Shown piece by piece: positions 22,984 through 40,290 of a stretch of 64,000 nucleotides of DNA (positions are counted from its first letter, which is position 1; every line of letters begins with the position of its first letter). The stretch lies in assembly GCA_003554945.1 (NCBI GenBank), contig PWHN01000099.1, positions 9,289 to 73,288 of the forward strand. The letters are read 5' to 3'. A program made the position numbers and the translations under genes. Origin of the DNA: a bacterium. Lineage in GTDB: Bacteria > T1Sed10-126. The notes beneath the pieces were generated by a model. It did not search any database. It was not told where the DNA came from and saw nothing but the letters and a program-made list of their open reading frames with translations.

Positions 22984-23015
22984 TTTGACTAATCTTTATT
23001 ACAGGAGTTTGACAC

Positions 23016-23606
23016 ATGTATTCATACGTTTGTGGCGAGTTGATAGAAAAAGGAAAAGATAGGGCTATAGTGGAAACCAAAGGTGGAATTGGCTACGAAC
23101 TTTTTATCGCCGACGGTGAACGGGCCCGTTTCCCTTCGGCCGGTGATCCCGTTAAGCTATATACTCATCTGTATGTGCGCGAGGATCAACAGAAACTGTA
23201 TGGATTTATTAAGCGTGCCAACCGGGATTTTTTTCGTCAGTTACAGCAGTTATCAGGAGTAGGGCCAAGCATGGCGCTGGCCGTTCTCTCCGATCTCGGG
23301 GCTGATCGTTTTCGGAAAGCCGTCCAGGAACAGGACCTGGATACCTTAAAAACAATAAAAGGGGTTGGCAAAAAAACAGCGCAGCGTTTGATTGTTGAGC
23401 TGGCCGAGAAATTACCTGCTCAACCAGTTGCCGCTGACAGCGGAACACAAAAGATGAGCGAAGAGGCTCTGGAGGCCCTGCTGGGCCTTGGTTTTCCACA
23501 GAAAGAAGCAACCCGTATGGTTAAAAAAGCGCTGGAGGCAGAGGACCACGAGACGCTTGAAGATCTAATAAGTGCGGCACTTCGGGGTTCGGAGACGGCC
23601 TCTTAA
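23016..23606 (+). CDS. ruvA: Holliday junction DNA helicase RuvA
   Basis: MYSYVCGELIEK...GIGYELFI... The HhH region LQQLSGVGPSMALAVLS and IKGVGKKTAQRLIVEL. Confidence 0.9.
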   Translation: MYSYVCGELIEKGKDRAIVETKGGIGYELFIADGERARFPSAGDPVKLYTHLYVREDQQKLYGFIKRANRDFFRQLQQLSGVGPSMALAVLSDLGADRFRKAVQEQDLDTLKTIKGVGKKTAQRLIVELAEKLPAQPVAADSGTQKMSEEALEALLGLGFPQKEATRMVKKALEAEDHETLEDLISAALRGSETAS

Positions 23607-23725
23607 ACTAACATTTCATTCAGATCAACAAGCAGTCGATAATCGTTACCAAGAGTGGTATGTCAAAATAGCCGGGAGATAATCCGGAAGATTAGATGGC
23701 GTGAAACGAATTAGGGAGGAAACAG

Positions 23726-24808
23726 ATGAGTGATTTCGAAAGTGCGAATATAAACGAATCCAGTGACTTTGAAGAGCCGCTTACACGAGACGTGGCAAGT
23801 CCGGAGGAGGCGCGGGGGGAGGAAACATTGCGCCCCGCCAAACTCGATGAGTTCATTGGTCAACAGACGGAGAAGGACAACCTGCGGGTATTTATCGAGG
23901 CGACGAGGCAGCGGGGGGAAGCGCTTGACCACGTCCTTTTGCACGGGCCGCCCGGTTTGGGGAAGACTACGCTTGCTCACATTATTGCCAATGAACTCGA
24001 GGTGCCGATTAAATCCACTGCCGGTCCAACGCTTGAACAACCGGGTGATCTGGCTGCCGTGTTGACAAATATTGAATCACGAAGCGTGTTGTTCATTGAT
24101 GAAATTCACCGGTTGTCCCACGTGGTGGAAGAATTTCTCTATCCGGCGATGGAAGATAAAAAAATTGATATTACGATTGGCGAGGGGCCCTCGGCTCGAG
24201 CGGTAAGTCTGGATCTCAACGAATTTACGCTTGTCGGCGCCACAACCCGGGCGGGGCTGTTGACTGAACCTCTCCGCTCTCGTTTTGGTGTCCATACCCG
24301 TCTCAGGTTTTACGAAGAGCCTGAAATGCGCCGAATTATCAGGCGCTCATCCAAAATTCTAGATATTGAGATTAAAGAAGAGGGGGTTGACGAGATAGCC
24401 CGACGTTCCCGGGGAACACCGCGAATAGCTAACCGTCTGTTACGAAGGGTGCGCGATTTTGCTGAAGTTGAGGGAGACGGTCTGATCGACAACGATATAG
24501 CTCAGCATGCTCTGGAGCGACTGGCCGTAGATCAGCAGGGTTTGAAGAGGATGGATAGGGAAATACTTTCCACAATTATTAATCATTTTGACGGGGGACC
24601 GGTAGGAATAAAGACCCTTGCGACAGCAGTTGGAGAAGAAGCCGGAACCATTGAGGAACTGCACGAACCATTTTTGATTCAATCCGGTTATCTTAAGCGA
24701 ACAACCCGGGGTCGAGTTACTACTCGCCGGGCTCGTGAACATCTCGGGATTAAAACAGAGGACAGCGGCCCGAGTCAACCCGGGGAGAGGAGTCTTTTTG
24801 ACGAGTAA
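23726..24808 (+). CDS. ruvB: Holliday junction ATP-dependent DNA helicase RuvB
   Basis: LDEFIGQQ...[23 protein letters not shown] and LFIDEIHRL. Confidence 0.9.
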
Positions 24809-26986: not shown

Positions 26987-27002
26987 ATATCTTCTGAAGT
27001 TT

Positions 27003-27791
27003 TTGCGCGGCTTGCTCGATTTAATTTTACCGGTTAAATGTCTGTTTTGTGACAAACCGGTCAGCTCAAAAAATATTATACCGCTGCCTATTTGTGCAGA
27101 ACACGAGCGTGAACTTCCCCGACTAAATCCGCCCCTTTGCAGATTGTGTGCGCTGCCCCTGGGTGCCCGGGTTGTTCGCCGTCCAAATGAAGCGTCCAGT
27201 CCAGAACCTGATATTAAAAAAATACCCCCCGAGGTCCCTCTCTGTGGAGATTGCCGGCTATCCGTCGTAAAATTTGATTTTGTGCTCGCCTCCTATGCTT
27301 ACTGTGACGAGTTGCGAACTATCGTCCACGACTGGAAATTTAACTCATTTAAATACTGGGGAAGCTGGCTGGGCAGACGCATGGCCCATCAGTTAGAGGG
27401 GGAGTTTGTTCCAGAAAAATGGGATTACCTGGTTCCGTTGCCCCTTTACTTCCGAAAACTCCGTCAGCGAGGCTTTAATCAGGCAGTTCAACTTGCCGAA
27501 CAACTCTCCTATCATTTTGAATTGCCCCTCTTGAAAGCACTGAGAAAGAGCCATGCCACACGCGCTCAGTCAGAGTTAAAATTTAGCGAGCGGTTGGCCA
27601 ACCTGGCCGGTTGTTTTTGCATTTTAGAAGAACAGAAAAGCAAAGTTGTGGACAGTTCCATACTGCTGGTAGACGATATTTATACGACGGGCGCTACCTT
27701 GAAGTGTGCCGCCGATGAACTTCAAAAAGCTGGGGCAAACAGAGTCGCCGGGTTAGTATTGGCCCGTTCGCTTCCTCCCGGTTTTGATTAA
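27003..27791 (+). CDS. comFC: ComF-family protein (ComFC-like phosphoribosyltransferase-domain competence protein)
   Basis: N-terminal Cys pairs (CLFCDKP...CAEH; CRLCALP...CGDC) and the PRTase motif LLVDDIYTTGATL. Confidence 0.7.
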   Translation: MRGLLDLILPVKCLFCDKPVSSKNIIPLPICAEHERELPRLNPPLCRLCALPLGARVVRRPNEASSPEPDIKKIPPEVPLCGDCRLSVVKFDFVLASYAYCDELRTIVHDWKFNSFKYWGSWLGRRMAHQLEGEFVPEKWDYLVPLPLYFRKLRQRGFNQAVQLAEQLSYHFELPLLKALRKSHATRAQSELKFSERLANLAGCFCILEEQKSKVVDSSILLVDDIYTTGATLKCAADELQKAGANRVAGLVLARSLPPGFD

Positions 27792-27977
27792 TTTTCAATA
27801 TAGTCGTTTCACCAGGTGACATTTCTTTCCTGAGTTTCCTCTAAAAAGCTTTTTTCCTCTGCGGAGGCGAGGAGAAAAAATTTTGAGCGAGAACTCTTTC
27901 CTTTTTTCTTTAGCTTTCTTGAATAGTGGCCGAAAATTAACTATGAAAACCACTATTATCGTCGGGAGGAATTTACC

Positions 27978-28472
27978 TTGAGCAAAGAAACGAAACTAAT
28001 AGAAAATTTAGAAGAACTCAATGAAAGACACGAAGTGCTCTTATCTCTACTGGATCGTAAGCTGGAAGCAGTAATTGAACGAGAAATAGATAAGCTTGCT
28101 GAGATTACTGAAGAGGGTAGGGGGCTGGTCAATGATATCAAGAGCTTGCACGAGACGAGGCGCAACCTCTGGGTTGAAGTTGGCGGCGAAGCGGTTATAA
28201 CGGTGGAAGATTTAAGTTCAGAGTTGGACTCGAAGACTGTTGAAAGACTGCAGTCGCTTGCGGAAGATTTACGCCGGAAAAACCGAAAAGTACAGCTCAA
28301 AACTGAACGTATTTCTGAGGTTTTACGCTCAAGAATAGGTGATATAGACCAGGTTTTTGAAACTGTTTTTGAGGTTTTAAACGGTGAGGGACAAGAACAG
28401 ACATACGATGAGAGCGGGCGAAAAAGCGACAAGGAGAACAAACAATCAATGGTTTTTGACGAGGCGGTGTAA
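27978..28472 (+). CDS. flgN: FlgN-like flagellar chaperone (position-based assignment)
   Basis: 164-aa coiled-coil acidic protein directly upstream of flgK. GGGAGG RBS then a TTG start. Confidence 0.5.
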   Translation: MSKETKLIENLEELNERHEVLLSLLDRKLEAVIEREIDKLAEITEEGRGLVNDIKSLHETRRNLWVEVGGEAVITVEDLSSELDSKTVERLQSLAEDLRRKNRKVQLKTERISEVLRSRIGDIDQVFETVFEVLNGEGQEQTYDESGRKSDKENKQSMVFDEAV

Positions 28473-28478
28473 GAGAAA

Positions 28479-31211
28479 ATGGCCGGTTTTCAGGCGATGG
28501 ACAACGCTCTGTCGGGGCTTTTAGCGTCCAGGAGGTCTCTGGACACCACCGCTCACAATATCGCCAATGCGGGTAATAAGAGTTATTCTCGTCAGCGGGC
28601 TGAACTACAGACCAACCGTCCCCAGGTTATTGGCGGGCTCACCATTGGGACCGGCGTTCATGTTGCTGAGATTACCCGGGCGCGCGATCATATGCTTGAT
28701 ACGCGCATGAGACAATCTACATCGACGCTTGATCGATACGATCAGTTAACTACACTTTACGATGATATAGAGACAGCTCTTAACGAACCATCGGACGAAG
28801 GGTTACGGGGAACTTTTGGTGATTTAAATGCCGCCATGCAGGAGCTGGCCAACGAGCCGGAAAACCGAGGCAGCCGGAGGACAGTTATCGGGCAGGCCGA
28901 AACTTTTGCCAGTGGGATAAGAAGGTTTTATCGGACTTTAAATGATATCGGCGGCGGTGAAGGTGAAAACAGTATAAATGTACAGATAGAATCCACTCTG
29001 GATGAGATAAATAATATCGCTGAGAATATTGCTTCGCTTAACAGAGAGATTAATGCCTCTGAGGCCCGCGGGACAAACCCGAACGATTTACTTGACCAAC
29101 GAACCGAATTGACCCGTGAGCTTTCCGAATATATAGACGTTACAGTTCAGGAAACATCGGAACAATTTCGCGTGAACGTTGCAGGTTTCACCCTTGTGCA
29201 GGGCAGTGAGTCCCATGAACTTGACTTTCGGCAGCCCGGCCCCGGAGAACCGCGCAAAATTGTTTATGATGATCATTTGGAAAGTGTTGTCACACCGCAA
29301 AATGGTAAGCTGAAAGCACTTATGGATATGCGGGAGGAAGGCATTCCAGACATTATTGACGATCTTAATGACCTGACTGTACGGCTGGTTGACCGTTTCA
29401 ACGACATCCACCGGAGCGGTTTTGGTATGCAGGAGCAGAGCCGCAACAACTTCTGGTCGGAGCTTCCGACCGCTGATGAGGGGATGTTCAGGTTTGAAGG
29501 TCTGGGAGACGTTGGTGGTGATTATCCGGAACGTAAGGCCGGTCACGTCGATGCACCGGACGAGCTTCTGTTTATTGACGGAGAGTCCGATGACGCCCGA
29601 GAAATGCCCCGTAATTTTGACGGTGACAGCGGGATATCAGATAACCCGGACGGAACGCTTTTAATTAACGGCCATTCAATTAATTACAACATGAAAGAGG
29701 ATTCGCTGGACGACATAATTGACCGCATTAATGAGTCGCCCAACCACGCACAGGCCTACTGGAGCGCCGATGAACGGCTGGTAATCACCGGAACACAGGA
29801 AAATGACTATCGAATTGACGAAATGCGTGATAACGGGCTTTTACTCGACAAAACCAATATTCTTTCCGTCGGCGGAAGCAATCGAAGCAGTTCGAGGTCC
29901 GTGGACGACGTGGAAGAAGACATTGCCTCTGAACTTGAAAGTTTTTTTGATGACGTGGATTATGCCGATGGGACGCTGGAGTTTTCTTCCCAACGTGAAG
30001 AAGACTTTACAATAAATTACGACGCTGAAGAGGATTCTCTGGTGGAATTGGTCGATAGAATCAACAACGCAAGCGAAGCGGCAGATTCAGACGTGGTTGC
30101 CTCGGTTACTAGTAACGACGAACTACGGTTGTTTACTGCTCATGAAGAAGAGCTTGATGAAGACGAAGGTCCTATTTATGGTGCTGGAGAAGAGATAGAC
30201 CTGCATGTTTCAAATGTTCATGACGTTCAACGGGGTGATACTGTTCGAGTCTCTGATAACGATGGAGCCGAAGAAGCTCGTGTTATTCATGTTAATCGTG
30301 ACGACGGTATCATTACGGTAGATGAACTTGACGAAGAGTATGATACTGGCGAAGACGCAGTAGTCCATATCAACAATAAACAGGACGATTTCAGGGTTAA
30401 TGACACGTCTAGTTTTGGTATTGATGATACGGACGTCGACGAGCATGATGACGAAGATTGGTATGGAATATATTTAACAGATGACGATGATTCCAGCAAT
30501 TTTACTGAAGGCGACACGGTGATAGTGGCGAATGACACTGAAACAGCGGGTGATGAGATCCGTGGCCGGGTGATGGAAGTCGACGACGAGGAGGGCATAG
30601 TCTACATTGATGAGGAGGTCGACGCAGCAGATATAGATGAGGGCGCAACAATAAGAAATACCAGGGATGAACATGAGACCCGTAATTTGTTGGCGGGCCT
30701 GGGAATGGACCGGCTTTATCGAGACGACAGCAGCTACGAGTATGCGATCACCGGTCAGTCGCAGCGGCCGCCCCTGGCCGATCAGGCGGCGGCTCTTGAG
30801 GTGGACAGCCTGATTGATGCCAATCCGGATCTGATTGCCGCTTCTGGCGGTGACGATATTGATAACACGGGAATTGCCGACACGATGAAAGGTGAAGGCG
30901 ACGGTTCAGTGATGAACGAACTGTCCAATCTTCACGATAAAAATGTAATGGCCCAGGGTGAAAAATCAATGGACGATCACCTGAGTGAAATGGCCGCTGA
31001 GATTGGCAGCGACTCCTCTCTGGTTCGCCGCGAAAAACGTGCATCTGAACAATTGGTTCATCAGCTTGAGGACCAGATACAGAGCGTCTCCGGCGTTAGC
31101 CTGGACGAAGAAATGAGCAAATTGATACGCGAACAGCAGGGGTTCCAGGCGGCCAGCCGGGTGATTGGGGCAGTGCGTGATATGTCTAATGAAATTATGC
31201 AGTTGATTTAA
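28479..31211 (+). CDS. flgK: Flagellar hook-associated protein 1 (FlgK) with a ~500-aa acidic insert
   Basis: N-terminal rod/hook signature MAGFQAMDNALSGLLASRRSLDTTAHNIANAGNKSYSRQRAEL, and a C-terminal conserved helix (QGFQAASRVIGAVRDMSNEIMQLI). Confidence 0.8.
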   Translation: MAGFQAMDNALSGLLASRRSLDTTAHNIANAGNKSYSRQRAELQTNRPQVIGGLTIGTGVHVAEITRARDHMLDTRMRQSTSTLDRYDQLTTLYDDIETALNEPSDEGLRGTFGDLNAAMQELANEPENRGSRRTVIGQAETFASGIRRFYRTLNDIGGGEGENSINVQIESTLDEINNIAENIASLNREINASEARGTNPNDLLDQRTELTRELSEYIDVTVQETSEQFRVNVAGFTLVQGSESHELDFRQPGPGEPRKIVYDDHLESVVTPQNGKLKALMDMREEGIPDIIDDLNDLTVRLVDRFNDIHRSGFGMQEQSRNNFWSELPTADEGMFRFEGLGDVGGDYPERKAGHVDAPDELLFIDGESDDAREMPRNFDGDSGISDNPDGTLLINGHSINYNMKEDSLDDIIDRINESPNHAQAYWSADERLVITGTQENDYRIDEMRDNGLLLDKTNILSVGGSNRSSSRSVDDVEEDIASELESFFDDVDYADGTLEFSSQREEDFTINYDAEEDSLVELVDRINNASEAADSDVVASVTSNDELRLFTAHEEELDEDEGPIYGAGEEIDLHVSNVHDVQRGDTVRVSDNDGAEEARVIHVNRDDGIITVDELDEEYDTGEDAVVHINNKQDDFRVNDTSSFGIDDTDVDEHDDEDWYGIYLTDDDDSSNFTEGDTVIVANDTETAGDEIRGRVMEVDDEEGIVYIDEEVDAADIDEGATIRNTRDEHETRNLLAGLGMDRLYRDDSSYEYAITGQSQRPPLADQAAALEVDSLIDANPDLIAASGGDDIDNTGIADTMKGEGDGSVMNELSNLHDKNVMAQGEKSMDDHLSEMAAEIGSDSSLVRREKRASEQLVHQLEDQIQSVSGVSLDEEMSKLIREQQGFQAASRVIGAVRDMSNEIMQLI

Positions 31212-31237
31212 TCATGCCAAAAAAGGAGGTGGTGTAA

Positions 31238-32899
31238 ATGGGGCGAGTCTCGTTCATAACTCAGTTTGAGCAGCCAAAAAGAAACCTGATGTCAAATACT
31301 AACGATATCCAGCAGACAATGGAACAAATATCGACCGGAAAACAGATTAGCAGACCGTCGGATAGCCCACCTGATATGGTGCGGCTGTTTGAACACCACA
31401 ACGAACAGGGAAGAATTGGCCAGTATAAAGACAATATAACCTCAGCCCGAAATGAACTTGAGACAGCCGAGGGTTCTCTGGGTGAAGTGACTAATCTGTT
31501 GCAACGCGTGCGAGAGCTTTCAGTCCAGGCGGCTAACGATTCTTTAAGTGACCGGGACAGGGAATTGATTAGTGCTGAAGTCGACGAGCGAATTGAGGAG
31601 TTGGTGGATGTTGCTAACAATCGACTGGCCGGGCAGTTCTTGTTTGGAGGCACAGAAACGGAAGACCTCGATCAGTTGTTCACTGTTGAAAGAGATGGCC
31701 AGGATCAAATCCAGGAAGTCCAATTTAACGGCGATTTCAACCCCACGAACAAACAAATTGGTGACGGGGAATTCATTCCCTCCAATTTAATTGGTAGCGA
31801 AATATTTCAGGCAACCAACGAGAGTGCCCGCGGAGATTTTGAAACAGTAGCTTTTGATACTGACCCCGATGTAGATGAATACGATTTTGCCGAAGACCCG
31901 TTAAAGGATCATAACAATATCCCCAAAAGCAAAGGTTACTTTCAGCTCAACGATAGGCAGGTTTACTACGATACAAACGAAGATACTATCATTGATGTCG
32001 CGGAACGTATTAACGACATGGGAATCACGGTTGAGTCAATGTTTGAAGAGGTGCGTGGGGTTCACGAAGATGACGTGGTAGACTTGGAAGATAACGAAAT
32101 AACTATCGCCCAGGATGACCTGCCGGTGGATGTTGAAGTCGGGGATAGGATTAGAATTAAGGATGACGACGGCGACCAGCAAATATTAAGGATAGAAGAG
32201 CTGGAGTTTGATGACGATGAAGATGAGGTTACTATTAGGTTAGACGATGATGTTGATGACCCGGACGATGTTCAAAGCGTTCAATTCATTGATTCGGCCG
32301 GGATTGAACACTCCCCGACTGAAGCGCGGGAACTTGATGAAGACAACCATGACGTCCAGTTCAAGCTCAAGTCTCGAACCCCTCATGAAATATATCTGCG
32401 AGATTTTGACCGCAATCCGGCCAACGGTGACGGCGAGCAGGGGCTGCTGAATGATCTTGGAATAATCGGCCAGAACGGCGAACCCCCTGAACCTCGGGAG
32501 AGACAAAATTATCCTGTTGAATACCACGACGGTGCTTTCCGGGAAGGAAAATCAATTTTTGATACCTTAATTGATTTCAGAAATACCCTCCAGGGTGAGC
32601 CGCCGGCAGACGTTGAAAATGAGGCGGAGGGTTTCCAGCAGTCTATTGAAGAGATTCAACTGGGGGTCGAAAACATACTGGTTCACCGCAGTATTGCCGG
32701 TGCTCGTGTTAACAGATTGGATTCGGCTGAAAACCGGATTGAAGACCGGGAATTGCATACGCAGGAATTAATATCACAGCTTGAGGACGCTGATCTGGCG
32801 GAAGTAATAACTGAACACGAGCGTTTGCGGACAGTTCAGGAGGCTTCGCTTCAAATGTCCTCAAATATTATGCAACTGAGCCTGGCAAATTTTATCTAA
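31238..32899 (+). CDS. flgL: Flagellar hook-associated protein 3 (FlgL) with an acidic insert
   Basis: TGKQISRPSDSPPDMV, and LQRVRELSVQAANDSLSDRDRELISAEVDERIEEL, which is the flagellin-type N-domain. C-terminal LRTVQEASLQMSSNIMQLSLANFI. Confidence 0.75.
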   Translation: MGRVSFITQFEQPKRNLMSNTNDIQQTMEQISTGKQISRPSDSPPDMVRLFEHHNEQGRIGQYKDNITSARNELETAEGSLGEVTNLLQRVRELSVQAANDSLSDRDRELISAEVDERIEELVDVANNRLAGQFLFGGTETEDLDQLFTVERDGQDQIQEVQFNGDFNPTNKQIGDGEFIPSNLIGSEIFQATNESARGDFETVAFDTDPDVDEYDFAEDPLKDHNNIPKSKGYFQLNDRQVYYDTNEDTIIDVAERINDMGITVESMFEEVRGVHEDDVVDLEDNEITIAQDDLPVDVEVGDRIRIKDDDGDQQILRIEELEFDDDEDEVTIRLDDDVDDPDDVQSVQFIDSAGIEHSPTEARELDEDNHDVQFKLKSRTPHEIYLRDFDRNPANGDGEQGLLNDLGIIGQNGEPPEPRERQNYPVEYHDGAFREGKSIFDTLIDFRNTLQGEPPADVENEAEGFQQSIEEIQLGVENILVHRSIAGARVNRLDSAENRIEDRELHTQELISQLEDADLAEVITEHERLRTVQEASLQMSSNIMQLSLANFI

Positions 32900-33092: not shown

Positions 33093-33590
33093 ATGCGGAA
33101 AGGGTTTGATCAAACCGTGAAAATTAAGTCGAAGCCCTACGGCGAAATTGAAATTGACAGGGATAAAATAGTTACAGTCCGAGGCGGACTGTTTGGGTTT
33201 GAAGACCAGGAGGAATACGTAATCATAGGAAGAGAGAGCGAACAGCCCTTTGAGTGGTTACAGGCGGTAAACGATCCCGACCTGGCTTTTGTTGTAGTGC
33301 CTCCTAACCTCATACGACCGGATTACGAGCTTTCTATTCTGCCGGAAGATCTCAAGCAGATAGAAGCGGATTCGACCGACGATTTGATGCTTTATTCGAT
33401 CGTGGTTGTGCCACAAAATCCGGACGCGATGACAATTAACTTTCGCGGACCGGTAATAGTAAATCAGGAAAATTTTCTGGCCAAACAGGTGATTAACCAG
33501 GTAGATGAATATACGGTGCGTCATCGGGTTCTTGATGAGCTGGAAGCTTCCGGTCGGCAGGGACTGGTCGCGAAGGGCGGGAGCGAGTAA
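33093..33590 (+). CDS. fliW: Flagellar assembly factor FliW
   Basis: [49 protein letters not shown] is typical of FliW. Confidence 0.85.
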
Positions 33591-33841
33591 TGCTTGTTCT
33601 TACCCGAAAAGTTGACGAACGCGTTATGATTGGCGACGACATTGAGATTATGATTGTCGATCAGGACGGCGATCAGGTCAAACTGGGAATTGAAGCACCG
33701 CGTGAGATACCGATTCATCGCCGCGAGGTTTATGAAGAAATCCAGAAAGAAAACATCGAAGCAGCCCGCGCAAGCGGGGAGGAGACCCGTTCTGTGGCAG
33801 AGTTTCTTAAACAACAAAGTGAAGAAAAAAAAGAATCTTAA
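33590..33841 (+). CDS. csrA: Carbon storage regulator CsrA
   Basis: [51 protein letters not shown]. Its start overlaps the fliW stop. Confidence 0.9.
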
Positions 33842-34401: not shown

Positions 34402-35295
34402 ATGGGTGGTATGTTTAGAATTAACACTAACGTTCAGGCTACATTTGCACAACGACAGTTACACAGAAGTTCTGGTGATCTTGACCAGGCGCAGGAGCGT
34501 CTGTCCAGTGGTTTACGTATTAACGTGGCTGCTGATGACGCCGCTGGACTGGCCATTGCTGAGAAATTGAGCATGGCCGGCCGTGGTCTTGACCAGGCGC
34601 AGTCTAACGCTCAGGACGGTATATCAGTACTTCAGACCGCCGAGGGTGGTCTTGAGTCTATTGGTGACGACCTGCAGCGGATGCGTGAGCTGGCTGTTCA
34701 GGCAGCTAACGACAGCTTGACTGACGATGACCGTGAACTGATCCAGACTGAGATTTCTCAGCTGGTAGATGAGGTTGACCGAACCGCCTCCACGGTTCAG
34801 TTTAACCAGCGTCAACTGCTTACCAATCAATTTGGTGAAGTTGACGAGGCTGGACGAGCTACTGCTGGAGAGGCATCACTGACTTTCCACATTGGCGCTA
34901 ACCGTGACGAGACAATCACGGTGGCCATGGGAGACGGTCAAGCTATTCAGACGGCTACCTCGCAAGCGCTTGGTATTCGTGTCGACGACGCCCCGATAAG
35001 CGTTGAATCACGTGAGGGTGCTGAATCGGCGATCGAAACGGTTACCCAGGCGATTAACGAAGTTTCGGAAACTCGCGCTAACATTGGTGCCGTTCAGAAC
35101 CGTCTCGAGGGAGCTGTTGACTTCCTGCAGATCCAGGGAGAGAACACCGAGGCTTCCGAGAGCGCGATTCGTGACGCTGACATTGCCGCGGAAGCGGTCA
35201 ACCAGACCCGAGCTAACATCTTGACTCAAGCCGGTACTTCCGTGCTTGCACAGGCCCAGCAGACGCCGCAGATGGCGCTGCAGTTGCTCGGTTAA
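34402..35295 (+). CDS. fliC: Flagellin (paralog 1, 297 aa)
   Basis: MFRINTNVQATFAQRQL...LSSGLRINVAADDAAGLAIAEKL and a C-terminal ANILTQAGTSVLAQAQQTPQMALQLLG. Confidence 0.9.
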   Translation: MGGMFRINTNVQATFAQRQLHRSSGDLDQAQERLSSGLRINVAADDAAGLAIAEKLSMAGRGLDQAQSNAQDGISVLQTAEGGLESIGDDLQRMRELAVQAANDSLTDDDRELIQTEISQLVDEVDRTASTVQFNQRQLLTNQFGEVDEAGRATAGEASLTFHIGANRDETITVAMGDGQAIQTATSQALGIRVDDAPISVESREGAESAIETVTQAINEVSETRANIGAVQNRLEGAVDFLQIQGENTEASESAIRDADIAAEAVNQTRANILTQAGTSVLAQAQQTPQMALQLLG

Positions 35296-35314
35296 CTTTT
35301 TTAGTTCTTTTTTA

Positions 35315-35340
35315 CCCGGGCTGTCTCGCCTATCGGCTAT
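35315..35340. repeat. Downstream arm of the flagellin-1 inverted repeat
   Basis: Reverse complement atagccgataggcgagacagcccggg matches 34186-34210. Confidence 0.6.
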
Positions 35341-35402
35341 CTTTTATTTTTACGAAAAACTGCTGGTGCGGTTTATGCCACAGCGGATGGGAATGAGATG
35401 AA

Positions 35403-35792
35403 ATGAATCATGGGACCGGAGCGATTGAGGGACCCGAGTTTCAAAATAGTTTGATCCAAAATAATAATTTGAACAGAGCCGAAACTACGGCTGAAACAGA
35501 CCGACCGGATAACTCTGCCGGAGCAGCGGTCGAGCGACCGGTTGCTGAGACTACCGTAAGTGTAGAGGATCAGGCAGTTGCCGAAGCTGTTGAAGAACTC
35601 GATCAGGCGGCCGCCGAAGCCTCTTTTTACGGGATTGATTTTAATATCTTGCCCGATGACAACCTGGTCCAGGCACGGTTGATCAGCCAGGAGAATGAGG
35701 AGTTGATTCGCGCTATCCCGCCTGATGAACTGCTGGAAATAAGGCAGCGCGTTGACGCTTTCATAGGACTGTTGTTTGATGTGACAAGATAA
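35403..35792 (+). CDS. flaG: FlaG-like flagellar protein
   Basis: C-terminal IRAIPPDELLEIRQRVDAFIGLLFDV matches the FlaG IPPEELL signature. Lies between flagellin genes. Confidence 0.6.
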   Translation: MNHGTGAIEGPEFQNSLIQNNNLNRAETTAETDRPDNSAGAAVERPVAETTVSVEDQAVAEAVEELDQAAAEASFYGIDFNILPDDNLVQARLISQENEELIRAIPPDELLEIRQRVDAFIGLLFDVTR

Positions 35793-35861
35793 CAAAACTT
35801 CATCGCCGCCCGGGTCACGGAAGACCTGGTTAAAAATCTCCAGGAGGGAGCTGAAGCCGCT

Positions 35862-36752
35862 ATGGGCGGTTTATTTCGTGTTAACACCAATACGCAGGCG
35901 ACCTTTATTGAGCGCCAGCTCTATCGCAATACCCGGCAACTGGATCGGGCGCAGGAACGTCTGGCCAGTGGCTTCAGGATTAATCGGGCAGCTGACGATG
36001 CAGCCGGGCTGGCTATTTCTGAAAAGTTGCGCATGGCCGAGCGCGGCCTGAGTCAGGCTCAGGCCAACGCTCAGGACGGGATCTCACTCCTTCAGACTGC
36101 CGAAGGTGGTATGGAGACAGTTACAGAAGATTTACAGAGAATTCGTGAGCTCAGCTTACAAGCGGCCAACGACAGTCTTACCGACTCCGATCGTGAATTA
36201 ATTCAGGCTGAAATAAATCAACTTGTCCAGGAGATAGACCGTACGGCCTCTACCGTGCAGTTTAACCAGCGTCAGCTGCTTAAAAATGATTTTGGAACTG
36301 TTGATGCTGGCGGTCGGGTCCAGGATGACGGCCGAGCTTCCCTTGCTTTCCACATTGGTGCCAACCGTAACGAAATTATCAGGGTTACTACAAACGAATT
36401 AGGAACTACTACCTCACGTTCTTTGAACCTGAGAACCGAGGATACTTCGCTAAGTATCAGTACACGCGAGGCCGCCGAGTCGGCAATCGAAGTGGCTACC
36501 CGGGCAATTAACCAGGTCTCCCGGCAGAGGGCTAATATTGGAGCACTTCAGAATCGACTCGAGGGTGCGGTCGATTTTCTCCAAATTCAAGAAGAAAATA
36601 CTCAACGTGCCGACAGCCGCATACGTGACGCTGACATCGCCCGGGAGACGATGAATATGACCCGCTCTCAAATTCTTGTCCAGGCCGGCACCTCGCTGCT
36701 TGCCCAGGCCCAGGAACTGCCCCGCACCATCCTCCAAATACTGGGCATCTAA
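35862..36752 (+). CDS. fliC: Flagellin (paralog 2, 296 aa)
   Basis: MGGLFRVNTNTQATFIERQL...LASGFRINRAADDAAGLAISEKL and a C-terminal QILVQAGTSLLAQAQELPRTILQILGI. Confidence 0.9.
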   Translation: MGGLFRVNTNTQATFIERQLYRNTRQLDRAQERLASGFRINRAADDAAGLAISEKLRMAERGLSQAQANAQDGISLLQTAEGGMETVTEDLQRIRELSLQAANDSLTDSDRELIQAEINQLVQEIDRTASTVQFNQRQLLKNDFGTVDAGGRVQDDGRASLAFHIGANRNEIIRVTTNELGTTTSRSLNLRTEDTSLSISTREAAESAIEVATRAINQVSRQRANIGALQNRLEGAVDFLQIQEENTQRADSRIRDADIARETMNMTRSQILVQAGTSLLAQAQELPRTILQILGI

Positions 36753-37034
36753 CTTTTTTCTTTTTTCTAAAGCTATCTTTGAAGTTTTTAGATTCCAGTT
36801 CCAGGTTTTAACTCGCAACACGCAACACGCAATAAGGTTTATGGTTTTGAAGTTTGATTTCAACTTTAAACTAAAAACTATAAACTGGAAACTAATTTTA
36901 TCCCGCAACTACACTTTTACACTTTCCCACTTTCTAACTTTCCCACTAACAAATTTCTCCACTCAAGATTTTTCCTCCGTAGTCGATAATTAAGAACAGG
37001 ATTATTACGAGACGACAGGGATCTTTGACATGTG

Positions 37035-37063
37035 AATACAGCCGGCGAACGGGGACCTGGCCC
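37035..37063. repeat. Upstream arm of the inverted repeat bracketing flagellin gene 3 (partner at 38061-38090)
   Basis: aatacagccggcgaacggggacctggccc. The downstream reverse complement is aatacagccggcgaacggagacctggcccg (29 of 30). Confidence 0.75.
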
Positions 37064-37093
37064 TTTTGTAGCATCAGTACGACCGTTGAACTT

Positions 37094-37132
37094 CGAATCA
37101 AGGATGATTCGATTCTAAAATTCCAGGAGGGA
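37094..37132 (+). promoter_or_regulatory. 5'UTR hairpin tcgaatc-AAGGAT-gattcga plus SD ccaggaggga for flagellin 3
   Basis: Same module as at 34351-34390, with one loop substitution. Confidence 0.6.
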
Positions 37133-37143
37133 GTGTTCTAATT

Positions 37144-38043
37144 ATGGGAGGTCTATTTCGAATCAACACAAACGTGCAGGCCACGTTCTCTCAACGTCAA
37201 CTGCACAGAAGTTCCGCTGATCTTGACAGAGCACAGGAGCGTTTGTCCAGCGGGTTAAGGATTAACGTCGCCGCAGACGATGCCGCAGGACTGGCTATTG
37301 CTGAGAAGTTAGAAATGGCTGGCCGCGGTTTAAGCCAAGCCCAGGACAACGCTCAGGACGGTATATCCGTCCTGCAAACCGCTGAGGGTGGTCTTGAATC
37401 CATTGGAGACGACCTGCAGCGGATGCGTGAGCTGGCCGTGCAAGCTGCTAACGACAGTTTGACTGACGACGATCGTGAACTGATCCAGACTGAGATTTCT
37501 CAGCTGGTCGATGAGATCGATCGCACAGCTTCCACGGTGCAGTTCAACCAGCGTCAGCTTTTAACCAACGAGTTTACAACCGTTGACGAATCTGGCGAGG
37601 CCCAAGAAGGTGAAGGCCCGGGTTCGCTTTCTTTTCACATTGGAGCGAACCGTGACGAGGTCATTACCGTGGACGTGGAAGACGACATTCAGACCGCAAC
37701 TGCTACAGCACTCGGTATTCGCGACGCTGACACGGGAGAACCCGTGAGCGTTGAAACCCGAGAACTTGCCGAATCCACGATCCAAACCGTTTCCGAGGCG
37801 ATTAACGAGGTCTCGGAAAGTCGGGCCAACATCGGTGCCGTTCAGAATCGGCTCGAAGGTGCCGTCGATTTTCTCCAGATTCAGTATGAGAATACCGAGG
37901 CATCGGAGAGCGCGATTCGTGACGCTGACATTGCCGAAGAAGCTGTTAACCAGACAAGGGCCAACATTTTGACCCAGGCCGGTACTTCCGTTCTTGGTCA
38001 GGCACAGCAAACGCCACAGATGGCCCTGCAGCTTCTGCAGTAG
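37144..38043 (+). CDS. fliC: Flagellin (paralog 3, 299 aa)
   Basis: MGGLFRINTNVQATFSQRQL...; N- and C-termini near-identical to paralog 1. Confidence 0.9.
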   Translation: MGGLFRINTNVQATFSQRQLHRSSADLDRAQERLSSGLRINVAADDAAGLAIAEKLEMAGRGLSQAQDNAQDGISVLQTAEGGLESIGDDLQRMRELAVQAANDSLTDDDRELIQTEISQLVDEIDRTASTVQFNQRQLLTNEFTTVDESGEAQEGEGPGSLSFHIGANRDEVITVDVEDDIQTATATALGIRDADTGEPVSVETRELAESTIQTVSEAINEVSESRANIGAVQNRLEGAVDFLQIQYENTEASESAIRDADIAEEAVNQTRANILTQAGTSVLGQAQQTPQMALQLLQ

Positions 38044-38060
38044 TTTTTTACTGACCTTTC

Positions 38061-38090
38061 CGGGCCAGGTCTCCGTTCGCCGGCTGTATT
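38061..38090. repeat. Downstream arm of the flagellin-3 inverted repeat
   Basis: cgggccaggtctccgttcgccggctgtatt, 18 nt after the stop codon. Confidence 0.75.
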
Positions 38091-38125
38091 TTTGAGCTGA
38101 TTTTCTCCAAGGGAGTTTTATTTCC

Positions 38126-39088
38126 ATGAAAGTAACTTTTTCTTCTGAACAGCCGCTTGAAATTGAAGCGCCTGACCCCGAGCAGAAGCTGGGAGATTAT
38201 ATCGATTTTGTAAATAAAAAATTAAGCGATGTAAACCGGTTTATTTTTTCTGCCGAGGTCGACGGCGAACAAATTACAGAAGAACGCTGCCGGCAGAAAT
38301 GTGATTCGTTTGAAGAATTAAAGCTGGAAGCCCGCTCTTTCGAAGAGATGACCATCGACACCATTGGCCGCTTAGGAGCTTATTGCCAGGAATACCTGGC
38401 TAAACTTCCACAGGTCATTGACGAGTGGAAAAAAAAGAGCGACGAAGAGAAAAATGCATTGCGTCGTCAAGTGCTTGAAGCTATAAATCTGGCCGGTAAG
38501 GTTCTGGACTCGATTGATGATTTTCTTGACGTCGCAGTGGAAGAACATGACACAATAAAAAGCAGAACAGAAAAATTGGCGGGGCAGTTTCGTGAGGCAG
38601 GGAGAGAAGAATTGAAGTCCTTGCTAACAGAGCAGGGGAGCGAATATTTTTCTGAATTATTTGACCACCTCAGAGCTGTACTGGATTACGTTGACGGGCA
38701 AAAAGATGCTGAGTCAGACCAGCTTTCACGTCTGGGCCGCCAGCTCGATGAACTGCACGAAGAACTAACCAACCTTATTAATAAATTCCAGGGCGGGGAT
38801 ATTGCCGACGCTTACGACCAATTGACTGATCGAGCTACTGAAATAGATGAATTGCTTGCTGTTATCGGCGGGTTGGACAAGACTGGTTTCCTCAAACGTA
38901 ATTTCACACCGGAAACTCAGGACGAATTAAGTCAGGCCCATACAGAACTTCACCGCGGTCTCACCGAATTACTTCAGGCCGTGGAGGAGCGCGATCCGAT
39001 AATGGTCTGCGACATACTTGAGTATGAGTTTTTACCCTACCTTGAATCTCTCCAAAAACTCTTTGGCAGCGTCGACGAAGCGGAATAG
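38126..39088 (+). CDS. Hypothetical acidic coiled-coil protein embedded in the flagellin array
   Basis: 320-aa ORF with no recognisable motif. It sits between flagellins 3 and 4 and lacks the CsrA-type leader. Confidence 0.5.
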   Translation: MKVTFSSEQPLEIEAPDPEQKLGDYIDFVNKKLSDVNRFIFSAEVDGEQITEERCRQKCDSFEELKLEARSFEEMTIDTIGRLGAYCQEYLAKLPQVIDEWKKKSDEEKNALRRQVLEAINLAGKVLDSIDDFLDVAVEEHDTIKSRTEKLAGQFREAGREELKSLLTEQGSEYFSELFDHLRAVLDYVDGQKDAESDQLSRLGRQLDELHEELTNLINKFQGGDIADAYDQLTDRATEIDELLAVIGGLDKTGFLKRNFTPETQDELSQAHTELHRGLTELLQAVEERDPIMVCDILEYEFLPYLESLQKLFGSVDEAE

Positions 39089-39093
39089 ATCGC

Positions 39094-39122
39094 TAAAGAA
39101 TTTTTTTAATCAAACCGATAAT
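39094..39122 (+). promoter_or_regulatory. Sigma28 (FliA)-type promoter candidate for flagellin 4
   Basis: TAAAGAAT-N13-CCGATAAT, against the consensus TAAAGTTT-N11-GCCGATAA. Confidence 0.4.
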
Positions 39123-39172
39123 ATAACTCAAAGCTAAGTACTATACCTCAATAAAACTATGTTCTCTGACAA

Positions 39173-39208
39173 TTAAATACGGCCGGTGTGACGTTTCCTC
39201 TCCCGGAG
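39173..39208. repeat. Upstream arm of the inverted repeat bracketing flagellin gene 4 (partner at 40298-40331)
   Basis: aaatacggccggtg is a perfect 14-nt core. An imperfect extension CCTCTCCCGGAG matches CCTCTCGCCGGTG in the partner arm. Confidence 0.6.
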
Positions 39209-39273
39209 TTGTTCTTTTTTTAGCATTTATTTATCTTTTTTATCCTTTTTGGAACAGCTCTCTGCTGTTCCAA

Positions 39274-39313
39274 TCGAATCAAGGACGATTCGATTACACT
39301 CCATAGAGGGAGG
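39274..39313 (+). promoter_or_regulatory. 5'UTR hairpin tcgaatc-AAGGAC-gattcga plus SD agagggagg for flagellin 4
   Basis: Same module again. It is preceded by another palindrome, ggaacagctctctgctgttcc (39251-39271). Confidence 0.6.
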
Positions 39314-39321
39314 CATGTACT

Positions 39322-40290
39322 ATGTCAGAACTTTTTCGTATTCAGAATAACATTGCCGCTCAGTTTGCACAGCGGCAACTTAACCGCTCTGATTCTACAT
39401 TAAACGAAGCCCAGGAAAGGCTTTCCAGTGGTTACAGAATTAACACCGCCTCGGACGATGCTGCCGGTCTTGCTATTTCGGAACGACTGCGAATGGCAGA
39501 CCGAGGCCTCGGTCAGGCGGAGAGAAACGCACAGGACGCTATTTCAGTTCTGCAGACCGCCGAAGGAGGCCTGGAAACTATTGGCGATAACCTTCAGCGG
39601 ATGCGCGAACTGGCCGTTCAAGCGGCTAACGACAGCCTGACCTGGGATGACCGGAGGTTGATCCAGACTGAGGTTGATCAGCTGGTCGAGGAGATCGATC
39701 GTAGTGCCTCGAGCGTGCAGTTCAACCAGCGACAGCTTCTTAAGAACGACTTTGGAACTGTCGACGCGTCTGGTGAAACTGAAGAAGGTTCGGGATCATT
39801 AGTCTTTCACGTCGGGGCTAACCGGGATGAAGTCATGGAGATTACAACCGATGAACTGCGAACCATGACTTCGGTTAACCTTGGTCTCCGACTCACGGAA
39901 GACCGGAATGAGATCATTGAATATCCCGGCGGTACTCTCTTGTATGGCCCCGACGATCAGTATTATGCTCTCAGTCTTTACCGGGACTCAGCCGGTAATT
40001 TGGATCGTAATGCTGCTGAATCCGCTATCGAGCGGATTACCCGGGCCATTGACCAGGTTTCAGACTCGAGAGCACGAATTGGTGCTGTTCAGAACCGTGT
40101 TGAGTCTACTATTGACTTCCTGCAACTTCAGCAGGAGAACACGCAGGCTTCTGAAAGCAGAATTCGTGACGCTGATTTGGCGGAAGAGTCCGTCCGACGG
40201 ACTCAAGCCGACATCCTGATGCAGGCCGGTACTTCCGTGCTTGCCCAGGCTAATCAGCAGCCTCAACTGGCATTACAGTTGTTGGCTTAG
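39322..40290 (+). CDS. fliC: Flagellin (paralog 4, 322 aa, divergent with a central insert)
   Basis: LSSGYRINTASDDAAGLAISERL and a C-terminal ADILMQAGTSVLAQANQQPQLALQLLA. Confidence 0.85.
   Translation: MSELFRIQNNIAAQFAQRQLNRSDSTLNEAQERLSSGYRINTASDDAAGLAISERLRMADRGLGQAERNAQDAISVLQTAEGGLETIGDNLQRMRELAVQAANDSLTWDDRRLIQTEVDQLVEEIDRSASSVQFNQRQLLKNDFGTVDASGETEEGSGSLVFHVGANRDEVMEITTDELRTMTSVNLGLRLTEDRNEIIEYPGGTLLYGPDDQYYALSLYRDSAGNLDRNAAESAIERITRAIDQVSDSRARIGAVQNRVESTIDFLQLQQENTQASESRIRDADLAEESVRRTQADILMQAGTSVLAQANQQPQLALQLLA

Follow-up and report, generated by a model that had tools for sequence, protein, structure and literature searches.

FlgK and FlgL of a soda-lake sediment bacterium share a small beta-barrel module within enlarged, acidic inserts

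The hook-filament junction consists of 11 FlgK and 11 FlgL subunits in two layers (PMC12221982), and the solved junctions appear as two stacked rings with accessory domains pointing outward. Beta-rich accessory domains, D2 and D3, lie within the D1 core in Xanthomonas campestris FlgL, Burkholderia pseudomallei FlgK and the Salmonella and Campylobacter junctions (PMC6155364, PMC5691160, PMC12221982; PDB 9go6, 4ut1, 9gsx). An accessory domain common to FlgK and FlgL has already been described for Xanthomonas and Burkholderia; D2 of FlgL resembles D2 of FlgK, and the two have been suggested to make a quasi-homotypic D2-D2 contact (PMC6155364). The number of FlgK domains differs among species (PMC5691160). 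The Flagellin_IN domain (Pfam PF07196) is found in flagellins, FlgK, FlgL and FliD. In giant and decorated flagellins, the central variable region of an axial protein accretes beta-rich surface domains that alter thickness and surface (PMC6248924, PMC11532411, PMC8931119).

The window analysed here, a stretch of 64,000 nucleotides, comes from an uncultured, unclassified bacterium of hypersaline soda-lake sediment. It carries a flagellar cluster in the order flgN-flgK-flgL-fliW-csrA-flagellin, and the synteny of flgN and flgK is kept in relatives:

27978..28472, + strand: flgN, export chaperone gene directly upstream of flgK (Pfam FlgN, E = 5.7e-13)
28479..31211, + strand: flgK, hook-associated protein 1 (910 aa, intact ORF)
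31238..32899, + strand: flgL, hook-associated protein 3 (553 aa, intact ORF)
33093..33841, + strand: fliW and csrA, the flagellin translation control pair, downstream of flgL (Pfam FliW, E = 1.2e-35; CsrA, E = 1.6e-25)
34402..40290, + strand: four short flagellin genes (297, 296, 299 and 322 aa; Pfam Flagellin_N and Flagellin_C)
35403-35792, + strand: flaG (E = 6e-10), interspersed among the flagellin genes
38126-39088, + strand: conserved 320-aa gene, function unassigned, likewise interspersed

The ORFs 28479-31211 and 31238-32899 are genuine FlgK and FlgL. They scored 304 bits against TIGR02492 (cutoff 171) and 247.5 bits against TIGR02550 (cutoff 127.2), respectively, and Pfam recognised FlgK_D1 (aa 95-325), Flg_bbr_C (aa 869-909) and, weakly, Flg_bb_rod (aa 7-31) in FlgK, and Flagellin_N (aa 14-140) and Flagellin_C (aa 477-552) in FlgL. 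Both reading frames were uninterrupted, in agreement with the first-pass annotation, which had described the two proteins as enlarged. That the inserts might be an artefact, i.e. mis-assembled low-complexity sequence or frame errors, was suggested solely by their compositional bias; nothing was found in favour of it and we give it a negligible probability. Two independent assemblies of soda-lake sediment (contigs Logan SRR490134 and JGI 3300000557) code for 910-aa and 553-aa proteins that are 100% identical to these, and a third MAG has a FlgK/FlgL pair that is 83-84% identical. In the flgK-flgL region DNA repeats do not exceed 33 nt, and the genes themselves are free of tandem repeats. Together with the intact ORFs and the confident full-length FlgK model (see below), these independent assemblies and the repeat scan rule the artefact out.

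With regard to size, the two proteins lie in the upper tail but are precedented. Complete metagenomic FlgK ORFs (n=74) had a median of 553 aa and a maximum of 876, and metagenomic FlgL ORFs (n=47) a median of 401 aa, two of the 47 reaching at least 550 aa. Among the 120 best database matches to FlgK, 20 were at least 900 aa long and the longest had 1253 aa; FlgKs of 800-1250 aa occur in other lineages, e.g. Thermotogae and Synergistetes. A solved C. jejuni chain of 750 aa, 9gsx_A, is deposited as 'Flagellin' and is taken by us to be its FlgL. FlgK and FlgL lengths were correlated (rho 0.68 over 47 metagenomic pairs).

The extra length interrupts the conserved D1 core between its N- and C-terminal halves, where these proteins usually vary. 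About 410 residues of FlgK lie outside everything that can be aligned with Salmonella FlgK, and this surplus comprises two Flagellin_IN-type domains, two barrels and a short beta unit between the barrels, whereas FlgL has a single IN-type domain with a single barrel nested in it. All features are on the + strand:

28479..29453, +: FlgK N-terminal conserved core D0/D1, aa 1-325 (FlgK_D1; long model helices 2-29 and 71-312)
29640..29894, +: FlgK IN-type domain 1, aa ~388-472, beta-beta-alpha-beta-beta, motif INYNMKEDSLDDIIDRIN (motif, model and alignment)
29961..30194, +: FlgK IN-type domain 2, N-terminal part, aa ~495-572, motif INYDAEEDSLVELVDRIN (Pfam Flagellin_IN)
30195..30392, +: FlgK beta-barrel module 1, aa 573-638, containing RGDTVRVSDNDG...VDELDEE (module HMM)
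30393..30482, +: short beta unit between the barrels, aa 639-668, FRVNDTSS..., clade-conserved (clade alignment and model)
30483..30680, +: FlgK beta-barrel module 2, aa 669-734, containing EGDTVIVANDTE...IDEEVD (module HMM and model)
30681..31211, +: FlgK C-terminal conserved part, end of IN-type domain 2 and then D1/D0 helices, aa 735-910 (Flg_bbr_C, aa 869-909)
31913..32113, +: FlgL IN-type domain, N-terminal part, aa ~226-292, VYYDTNEDTIIDVAERIN (motif and alignment)
32123..32299, +: FlgL beta-barrel module, divergent and very acidic, aa ~296-354, VGDRIRIKDDDGDQQILRIEELEFDDDEDEVTIRLDDD (HMM, shuffles, hhalign and positional orthology)
32354..32527, +: FlgL IN-type domain, C-terminal part, aa ~373-430, VQFKLKSRTPHEIYLRDF...GLLNDLGII (clade conservation)

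The full-length AF2 model of FlgK (pLDDT 89.5, pTM 0.83, most insert blocks at 80-96) predicts that the insert is folded into barrel and IN-type domains. IN-type domain 1 is modelled with strands 391-396, 399-404, 424-428 and 433-438 and a helix at 410-419, and it can be aligned with IN domains of 625-aa FlgKs and 416-aa FlgLs. IN-type domain 2 (strands 498-504, 510-514, 539-543 and 549-558, helix 521-534) shares a 33-nt DNA similarity with domain 1 and matched Flagellin_IN above threshold at aa 510-553 (26.3 bits, cutoff 22.7); the remaining two IN copies fall under the Pfam reporting threshold. The short beta unit has model strands at 638-644, 646-652 and 661-666, with F638 and S645 invariant in the clade alignment, module 2 has strands at 680-684, 693-702, 707-711 and 724-727, and the C-terminal part has helices at 831-871 and 875-909. 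The motif x-Y-D-x-x-E-D-S-x-x-D-I-x-x-R-I-N occurs twice in FlgK and once in FlgL, where every sequence of the clade alignment keeps Y244, D245, D249, D253, R257, I258 and N259. The N-terminal part of the FlgL IN domain aligns with the FlgK IN domains; its C-terminal part is kept in every FlgL clade member, barrel-less ones included, and aligns with the uninterrupted IN domain of a relative (P0127). In contrast to the Flagellin_IN domains described in Pfam, those found here host nested barrels, in different loops in FlgK and FlgL. These IN-type domains had been overlooked in the first-pass annotation, as had the clade-wide occurrence of the barrel module and its presence in phage tail proteins.

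The repeat peptides that had been quoted as common to both inserts were located at FlgK aa 585-620 and 677-715 and at FlgL aa 300-337, and they form the core of a five-stranded beta-barrel of about 60-65 aa, as judged by a stand-alone model with five strands. A module HMM built from relatives matched FlgK at aa 575-638 (65 bits, E = 4e-20) and aa 669-734 (47 bits, E = 1.9e-14), and two barrel copies in FlgK are thus strongly supported. The FlgL copy scored weakly against the FlgK-module HMM (11-16 bits), a score reached by none of 2000 composition-matched shuffles, and hhalign aligned it to the FlgK-module alignment with an E-value of 3.2e-5. It is also positionally orthologous to module 3 of the FlgLs of P0201 and L004, which score 33-58 bits. 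The shuffle test, hhalign and positional orthology support one divergent copy of the module in FlgL, presumably also a barrel. In the module alignment, 11 columns are 92-100% hydrophobic, and Phe and Gly are near-invariant. The HMM, hhalign, the shuffles and the FlgK model thus bear out a common inserted beta-rich module between the terminal helices, with established protein identities and domain boundaries.

The fold class of the module is established. It is similar to small accessory barrels that occur in phage tailspike capsule depolymerases, in K1 lyase (the 'Rider' domain, PF24149) and in GH110 alpha-galactosidases (PF23764); these lie within the wider EF-Tu domain II/F1-ATPase crown barrel class, and a flagellar setting is undescribed for them in the literature searched. 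None of the module copies matched PF24149/PF23764-type Pfam families significantly (best E-value 0.12); one non-flagellar carrier of the module matched PF24149 as a whole protein, with no single stretch passing alone. Outside flagella, the barrel was found in phage tail sheath, Baseplate_J and beta-helix proteins. The barrels might bind glycans or surfaces and so give the junction a collar that adheres or interacts with a matrix, or they might protect it from flagellotropic phage as a decoy or shield. The proteins that contain the nearest folds and sequences, namely tailspike capsule depolymerases, GH110 galactosidases, K1 lyase and beta-helix and baseplate proteins, act on or contact polysaccharides or cell surfaces. 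We consider such a binding role unlikely. In those proteins the small barrel is known as an accessory or structural part and not as the site of catalysis, the module alignment has no conserved aromatic or polar patch beyond the core residues, and 22 subunits per flagellum are a poor adhesion platform. Tail sheath and tube proteins are also decorated, and there a packing role is more natural.

Among relatives, the module is clade-wide and variable in copy number. It is present in the FlgKs of all of the about 16 related metagenomic clade members, in 1-3 copies, and their FlgLs have 0-3, some with 2-3 strong copies; at 79 other FlgK loci, neither flgK nor the genes around it contained the module. 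FlgK and FlgL copy numbers rise together (3/3, 3/3, 3/2, 2/1, 2/1, 1/0 and 1/0) across the seven genomes that were compared, which are phylogenetically non-independent, and the FlgLs of two relatives (P0123 and P0125) lack the barrel segment. The barrel would be a promiscuous decoration domain, the same as that on phage tail-sheath, baseplate and tailspike-like proteins, which entered both junction proteins in the clade ancestor and was then duplicated and lost, leaving 1-3 copies in FlgK and 0-3 in FlgL. Because copy number spans 0-3 in close relatives, the barrels may be dispensable and perhaps neutral decoration. A neutral accretion, in which insertions are tolerated in the variable loop of axial proteins and the barrels ride along without selected function at the junction, would also agree with the two barrel-less FlgL orthologues, with the promiscuity of the module over unrelated proteins, and with the frequent dispensability of flagellin outer domains for motility (PMC8931119). 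It nevertheless appears doubtful to us, since the copies are old and held in place (those at equivalent positions in different genomes group together, in preference to those of one genome), the conservation of their hydrophobic cores is perfect, and FlgK and FlgL counts increase together. Moreover, the acidic lineage re-tuned the surfaces yet retained the domains, and purifying selection on the fold is therefore implied.

The inserts are extremely acidic, as had been noted: the Asp+Glu fraction is 0.294 in FlgK 326-740 and 0.277 in FlgL 161-460, compared to a mean of 0.161 for the other proteins of the window and 0.163 for the FlgK core (aa 1-325). The acidity is largely lineage-specific. The FlgK modules have an Asp+Glu fraction of 0.31 and the orthologous modules 0.17-0.24 with 27-40% Asn/Ser/Thr/Gln; of the 21-28 Asp/Glu per FlgK module, 4-5 are in columns where relatives keep Asp/Glu too and 9-13 in columns where these are rare in relatives. 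Lysine makes up 1.4-2.0% here versus 3.5-5.8% in relatives. Such a depletion is typical of protein surfaces adapted to high salt. Acidity is found in the window proteome as a whole (D+E 0.161, K+R 0.110), and the flagellins and some other proteins have a pI of ~4.1.

The first-pass idea that the modules bind cations (Ca2+, Mg2+ or Na+), with bound metal cross-linking or rigidifying the junction, is favoured by this very high acidity, by a D-x-D-G turn after the GD strand and by about seven columns (including 14, 22, 40, 52, 61 and 91) in which Asp/Glu persist in relatives that are not acidic; these columns make a conserved metal site conceivable. We find the idea improbable all the same, as most of the acidity is lineage-specific, Asn/Ser/Thr/Gln substitute in relatives, and the D/N-D/N-G site reads as a beta-turn that varies between copies (NNNS, DTGN, ANNG, ADGS). 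The module matched no Pfam family, known metal-binding families included, and acidification with Lys depletion is also seen in the conserved core and in other window proteins. Given the Asn/Ser/Thr-rich composition of the orthologous modules and the depletion of lysine, adaptation of the surface to salt is a better fit than a dedicated cation site. Solvent-exposed surfaces would have gained Asp/Glu and lost Lys, so that the domains stay in solution and keep their fold in brine with molar sodium. As in acidic halophile proteins (PMC3817357), there is an excess of Asp/Glu, low Lys and a pI of ~4.1, with acidification concentrated in variable, predicted surface-exposed inserts and hydrophobic core columns unaltered; unlike in these, the window proteome is moderately acidic overall and the bias is strongest in some proteins, flagellar ones included.

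We favour, at a probability of roughly 0.6, the explanation that these are accessory domains that decorate and reinforce the junction and have haloadapted surfaces. As in the D2/D3 systems of Xanthomonas, Burkholderia, Salmonella and Campylobacter, for which a quasi-homotypic contact and a reinforcing role were proposed, FlgK and FlgL have an accessory fold in common, which lies within the D1 core of both; unlike there, it is of the Flagellin_IN type plus a five-stranded small barrel rather than a D2-type beta-sandwich, and occurs in 1-3 tandem or nested, highly acidic copies. By analogy with the solved junctions, the domains would point outward and make a thick, strongly negative collar round the hook-filament junction. 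We infer that its role is most likely mechanical or one of packing, the junction being stiffened by like-with-like contacts between the outer domains of neighbouring FlgK and FlgL subunits, and we conjecture that barrels of different subunits touch. The collar would adjoin a thin filament: the flagellins are, as first described, short (296-322 aa) and without outer domains, with ~70-95 residues between Flagellin_N and Flagellin_C and N-/C-terminal helical regions only, and the barrel-module HMM matched neither the four flagellins nor flaG nor the 320-aa gene. In contrast to giant and decorated flagellins, decoration is here confined to the 22-subunit junction, the filament subunits being minimal. 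An enlarged outer layer is therefore plausible, but to call the junction unusual, as had been done, overstates the case, as large FlgK and FlgL and a shared accessory domain are known. The junction enlargement is a real variation on the known theme of accessory outer domains.

Both open reading frames at the centre of this locus are uninterrupted, and they encode FlgK (hook-associated protein 1) and FlgL (hook-associated protein 3). FlgK scored 304.1 bits against its equivalog model TIGR02492 (cutoff 170.75) and matched PF22638 (FlgK_D1) at aa 95-325 (E 2.6e-52) and PF06429 (Flg_bbr_C) at aa 869-909 (E 1.5e-8), the latter being the rod/hook-type C-terminal segment; it is also similar in three dimensions to solved FlgK structures. 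FlgL scored 247.5 bits against TIGR02550 (cutoff 127.2) and matched PF00669 (Flagellin_N) at aa 14-140 (E 2.2e-23) and PF00700 (Flagellin_C) at aa 477-552 (E 2.7e-7), its nearest solved chains being Legionella FlgL (5yti) and Salmonella FlgL (9go6_L). The order flgN-flgK-flgL recurs in six related metagenomic loci, and the other neighbours are fliW, csrA, flaG, argS and four flagellin genes, whose products of 296-322 aa are indeed as short as the first-pass annotation had stated.

Genes at the hook-filament junction locus
27978-28472, flgN, 6 nt 5' of flgK
28479-31211, forward strand, flgK, 910 aa
31238-32899, forward strand, flgL, 553 aa, 26 nt 3' of flgK

Large acidic inserts of this kind might reflect mis-assembled low-complexity sequence or frame errors. 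However, the same 910-aa FlgK and 553-aa FlgL were found, identical, on independently assembled contigs (Logan SRR490134 and JGI 3300000557), and a pair 83-84% identical to them occurs in a third MAG. A repeat search of the region revealed no DNA repeats exceeding 33 nt, nor any tandem arrays inside either gene, and the full-length FlgK model folded confidently (mean pLDDT 89.5, pTM 0.83, every segment at least 50). Together with the intact reading frames, these observations rule out mis-assembly and low complexity and leave a negligible probability for any such artefact; the genes are genuine.

To characterise the inserts we collected about 16 metagenomic FlgKs that group with the window FlgK (830-1012 aa, 38-86% identity; hereafter the clade). 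An iterated profile identified a unit of about 60-65 aa in every clade FlgK, in one to three copies each. In the window FlgK this profile covered most of its length at aa 575-638 (65 bits) and aa 669-734 (47 bits). An alignment of 30 copies showed a near-invariant Phe and Gly and 11 columns that are 92-100% hydrophobic. AlphaFold predicted one copy to be a small five-stranded barrel (pLDDT 76), and the same strand pattern is present twice in the full-length FlgK model. The repeated pattern GD-x-V-x-V...DG...I-x-V-x-x-L-D, previously noticed in both inserts, maps onto barrel strands 2 to 4 with the intervening turn, and the peptides quoted for it lie at aa 585-620 and 677-715 of FlgK and aa 300-337 of FlgL. 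The motif is thus part of a domain, as borne out by both profile analysis and structure prediction, two of the checks that had been proposed for the inserts.

Domain organisation of the inserts
FlgK aa ~388-472, IN-type domain 1 (Flagellin_IN-like), beta-beta-alpha-beta-beta
FlgK from aa ~495, start of IN-type domain 2, part of it above the Pfam Flagellin_IN threshold
FlgK aa 573-638, barrel 1
FlgK aa 639-668, short beta unit between the barrels, conserved in the clade
FlgK aa 669-734, barrel 2
FlgK, C-terminal to barrel 2, closing segment of IN-type domain 2
FlgL aa ~226-292 and ~373-430, split IN-type domain
FlgL aa ~296-354, presumed barrel, interrupting the IN-type domain

In FlgK as in FlgL, the barrels sit within IN-type domains. 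Pfam Flagellin_IN (PF07196) matched FlgK at aa 510-553 with 26.3 bits (gathering cutoff 22.7). The Flagellin_IN motif is also present at FlgK ~401-418 and FlgL ~242-259, where Pfam reported no PF07196 match at E<=0.01, and these segments align with the IN domains of other FlgKs and FlgLs. FlgL orthologues without the barrel have an uninterrupted IN-type domain. A common insertion point was ruled out, the barrels of FlgK and FlgL being placed in different loops of the IN-type domain.

The FlgL copy is divergent. A direct composition-corrected BLAST between the two inserts gave an E-value of 0.002, in an alignment that covered the IN motif and the start of the barrel; since this was too weak on its own, we turned to profiles, shuffles and orthologues. 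The FlgL segment matched the FlgK-derived profile weakly (11-16 bits, with strong compositional bias), and the real score was not reached by any of 2000 shuffles, whether of the FlgL insert or of its acidic core. A three-orthologue profile of this segment, compared with the 30-copy alignment by hhalign, gave an E-value of 3.2e-5 (probability 73%). FlgLs of a less acidic branch (P0192, P0201 and those of loci L004, L008 and L010) contain two to three copies scoring 21-62 bits against the FlgK profile, and when the FlgLs are aligned, the window segment falls exactly at the position of the third copy of P0201 and L004 FlgL; two other FlgL orthologues lack it. On the strength of the shuffles, hhalign and positional orthology we accept the FlgL segment as a member of the module family, in agreement with the first-pass view that the two inserts share a common module.

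The number of modules in the two proteins co-varied among seven related genomes.

Module copies in FlgK/FlgL
L004, 3/3
L008, 3/3
L010, 3/2
Window, 2/1
L003, 2/1
L005, 1/0, with a divergent remnant in the FlgL position
L012, 1/0

In a neighbour-joining tree the module copies clustered by position across genomes and not by genome, indicating that the duplications are old and that there was no recent exchange between flgK and flgL; recent gene conversion between them is thereby ruled out. Among 47 complete FlgK/FlgL pairs from a metagenome scan with generic FlgK motifs (loci L014-L092), the lengths of the two proteins were correlated (Spearman 0.68, p 1.5e-7, uncorrected for phylogeny), a hint that co-evolution of junction outer domains is a general trend. 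A common size class among these pairs combines an FlgK of ~625-636 aa with an FlgL of ~414-420 aa.

The high acidity described for the inserts was confirmed, the Asp plus Glu fraction being 0.294 in FlgK (aa 326-740) and 0.277 in FlgL (aa 161-460), compared to a mean of 0.161 for the 41 other window proteins. Over the whole protein the fraction was 0.229 in FlgK (0.148-0.191 in other clade FlgKs) and 0.239 in FlgL (0.161-0.170 in its orthologues P0123 and P0124, but 0.223 in the orthologue P0125, which is acidic too). Net charges amount to -134 for FlgK and -85 for FlgL, and Lys is reduced to 1.4% and 2.0%, respectively, compared to 3.5-5.8% in relatives. The modules of the window and of its 83% relative have Asp plus Glu fractions of 0.31-0.34, compared to 0.17-0.24 elsewhere in the clade, where Asn/Ser/Thr/Gln make up 27-40% of the module. 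Each window FlgK module carries 21-28 Asp/Glu, of which four to five are in columns that are acidic in relatives too and 9-13 in columns where relatives rarely have Asp/Glu. The core columns of the module remain 100% hydrophobic in every copy. An excess of acidic residues over relatives extends to the conserved termini, and pI values near 4.1-4.2 occur in further window proteins, among them the flagellins. The window proteome as a whole is bimodal, with many proteins at pI 4.0-4.6 (including cytoplasmic-looking enzymes) and a minority above pI 8, which fits a halophile, and the source was apparently soda-lake sediment, to go by the JGI contig name SL_8KL_010_SED. Given the increase in Asp/Glu, the decrease in Lys, the unchanged core and the apparent soda-lake origin, the acidity matches the well-known pattern of halophilic protein adaptation (PMC3817357) and does not point to a dedicated metal site. 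The earlier proposal of a cation-binding module fared poorly: although about seven columns keep Asp/Glu throughout the family and might hold a structural cation, orthologous modules do not retain most of the acidic residues, and neither FlgK, FlgL nor the module copies matched EF-hand-like, RTX or cadherin-like metal-binding families in Pfam, which makes true cation binding very unlikely. The inserts are a clear case of a conserved fold whose surface was re-coded for halophily.

The distribution of the module extends well beyond flagella. Searched exhaustively with the profile, 1.84 billion representatives yielded 269 proteins at E<=1e-3. The set of carriers that we examined comprised 147 sequences (146 newly listed representatives and the cluster member P0338); at least one near-complete copy was present in 126 of the 147, and only about seven were flagellar. 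In phage tail-sheath proteins (P0212, P0230 and P0236) the module sits on the N-terminal side of the conserved sheath core, and further non-flagellar carriers include a Baseplate_J protein (P0243), a beta-helix protein (P0213) and very large multi-copy proteins. P0235, a module-bearing fragment of 163 aa, resembles by eye the filament-cap protein FliD. Pfam and PHROGs scans of the 30 copies yielded only scattered weak matches and nothing significant; for the tailspike, K1-lyase Rider and GH110 barrels (PF24149, PF23764 and PF12195), no copy exceeded the gathering score of the Pfam model. Foldseek found no viral predicted structure at E<=0.001, the top weak matches being mostly tail-fibre or tailspike-like proteins. 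The module was absent from 79 unrelated metagenomic FlgK loci and their neighbouring genes; the scan that supplied these loci (L014-L092) returned mostly distant FlgKs and a single clade member, and was used as the negative control as well as for the length statistics. Within flagella the module is thus confined to this clade, apart from the FliD-like fragment. As the carriers are mostly non-flagellar and many are unrelated, the barrel is a promiscuous decoration domain, and its tail-sheath, baseplate, tailspike-like and FliD-like carriers suggest that it serves generally to decorate helical assemblies. A role of the barrels in binding or adhesion might be read from their phage and glycosidase relatives; we regard it as quite unlikely.

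The surrounding genes contain several further features. Upstream of flgK, the region 22006-28472 holds ruvA/ruvB, a large M23 peptidase, a ComF-like phosphoribosyltransferase and flgN, and the order from ruvA/ruvB to flgN is kept across the clade (window, L004, L005, L007 and L012). Some relatives have an inserted three-gene block for polysaccharide/glycan synthesis (Polysacc_synt_2, Bac_transf and TMEM260_N-like), which the window lacks. By RuvB the lineage falls in a clade of its own, with Bacteroidota next (63-67% identity), weak evidence for a possible FCB-group affiliation; a spirochaete affinity was also considered as a possibility, the pointers being PRK06663 as best secondary FlgL model and the presence of TP0873_N-like neighbours. 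A 320-aa acidic protein (38126-39088, Asp plus Glu 0.23) is encoded among the flagellin genes and has counterparts at the same position in L005, L010 and L012, with DUF8042 and weak TP0873_N matches; it is a conserved flagellar-cluster protein and possibly a filament accessory. Just 3' of the flagellin genes and argS lies a family-9 glycosyltransferase (42020-43516), followed by a 650-aa protein with an MptE-like domain (PF01973, E 8.5e-26), the two together covering 42020-45203. As listed, the two reading frames overlap by ~265 nt, so that the second probably starts later. The MptE-like domain is typical of Maf-type flagellin glycosyltransferases, so that the short flagellins may be glycosylated. 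A 1138-aa protein (1575-4991) combines a PLD-like domain with an acidic repeat stretch resembling procyclin/PARP repeats.

With regard to the junction itself, the suggestion that it is unusual and enlarged holds in part. FlgK and FlgL do share extra domains, but large junction proteins are not new, since database FlgKs of 800-1250 aa are already known from lineages including Thermotogae and Synergistetes. In the solved junction-cap complex 9gsx, one C. jejuni chain of 750 aa carries the deposited name 'Flagellin' but presumably represents FlgL. To our knowledge, the outer-domain diversity of the junction is almost unexplored compared to that of flagellins. The latter is well documented (PMC11532411, PMC6248924), and the number of domains in FlgK is known to vary among species (PMC5691160). 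Solved Salmonella and Campylobacter junctions consist of 11 FlgK and 11 FlgL in two stacked layers (PMC12221982), and the accessory D2 domains of Xanthomonas FlgL and Burkholderia FlgK have a common fold, decorate the outside and have been proposed to reinforce the junction by quasi-homotypic contacts (PMC6155364). By analogy with the solved junctions, the IN-type domains and barrels would project outward, and together they would make up a thick collar of strong negative charge where the hook meets the minimal-flagellin filament. We favour, with a probability of roughly 0.6, structural decoration or reinforcement combined with halophilic surface tuning, of which the parts concerning identity, domain and acidity are much firmer than the functional part. 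That the extra domains merely accumulated by neutral accretion seems unlikely to us. A more speculative extension of the decoration reading, which we consider improbable, is that a mobile barrel (also found on the tail-sheath, baseplate and tailspike proteins of phages) was taken up by FlgK and FlgL alike in this lineage and co-expanded to 3+3, with homotypic stacking producing a multi-layer charged sleeve, possibly matched to the putative DUF8042/TP0873_N-like filament accessory. If true, such a stacked-barrel sleeve would be a junction architecture unseen in any solved flagellum.

What is new here is the barrel family, the way it sits inside IN-type domains of FlgK and FlgL alike, the co-varying copy number and the halophilic re-coding. 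No concept is overturned, and the biological payoff hinges on structural work. The previously uncatalogued domain family, with at least 269 cluster representatives, ties flagellar axial proteins to phage tail structural proteins, and the natural series from 1/0 to 3/3 in both junction proteins offers a handle to test the reinforcement of the junction by accessory domains.
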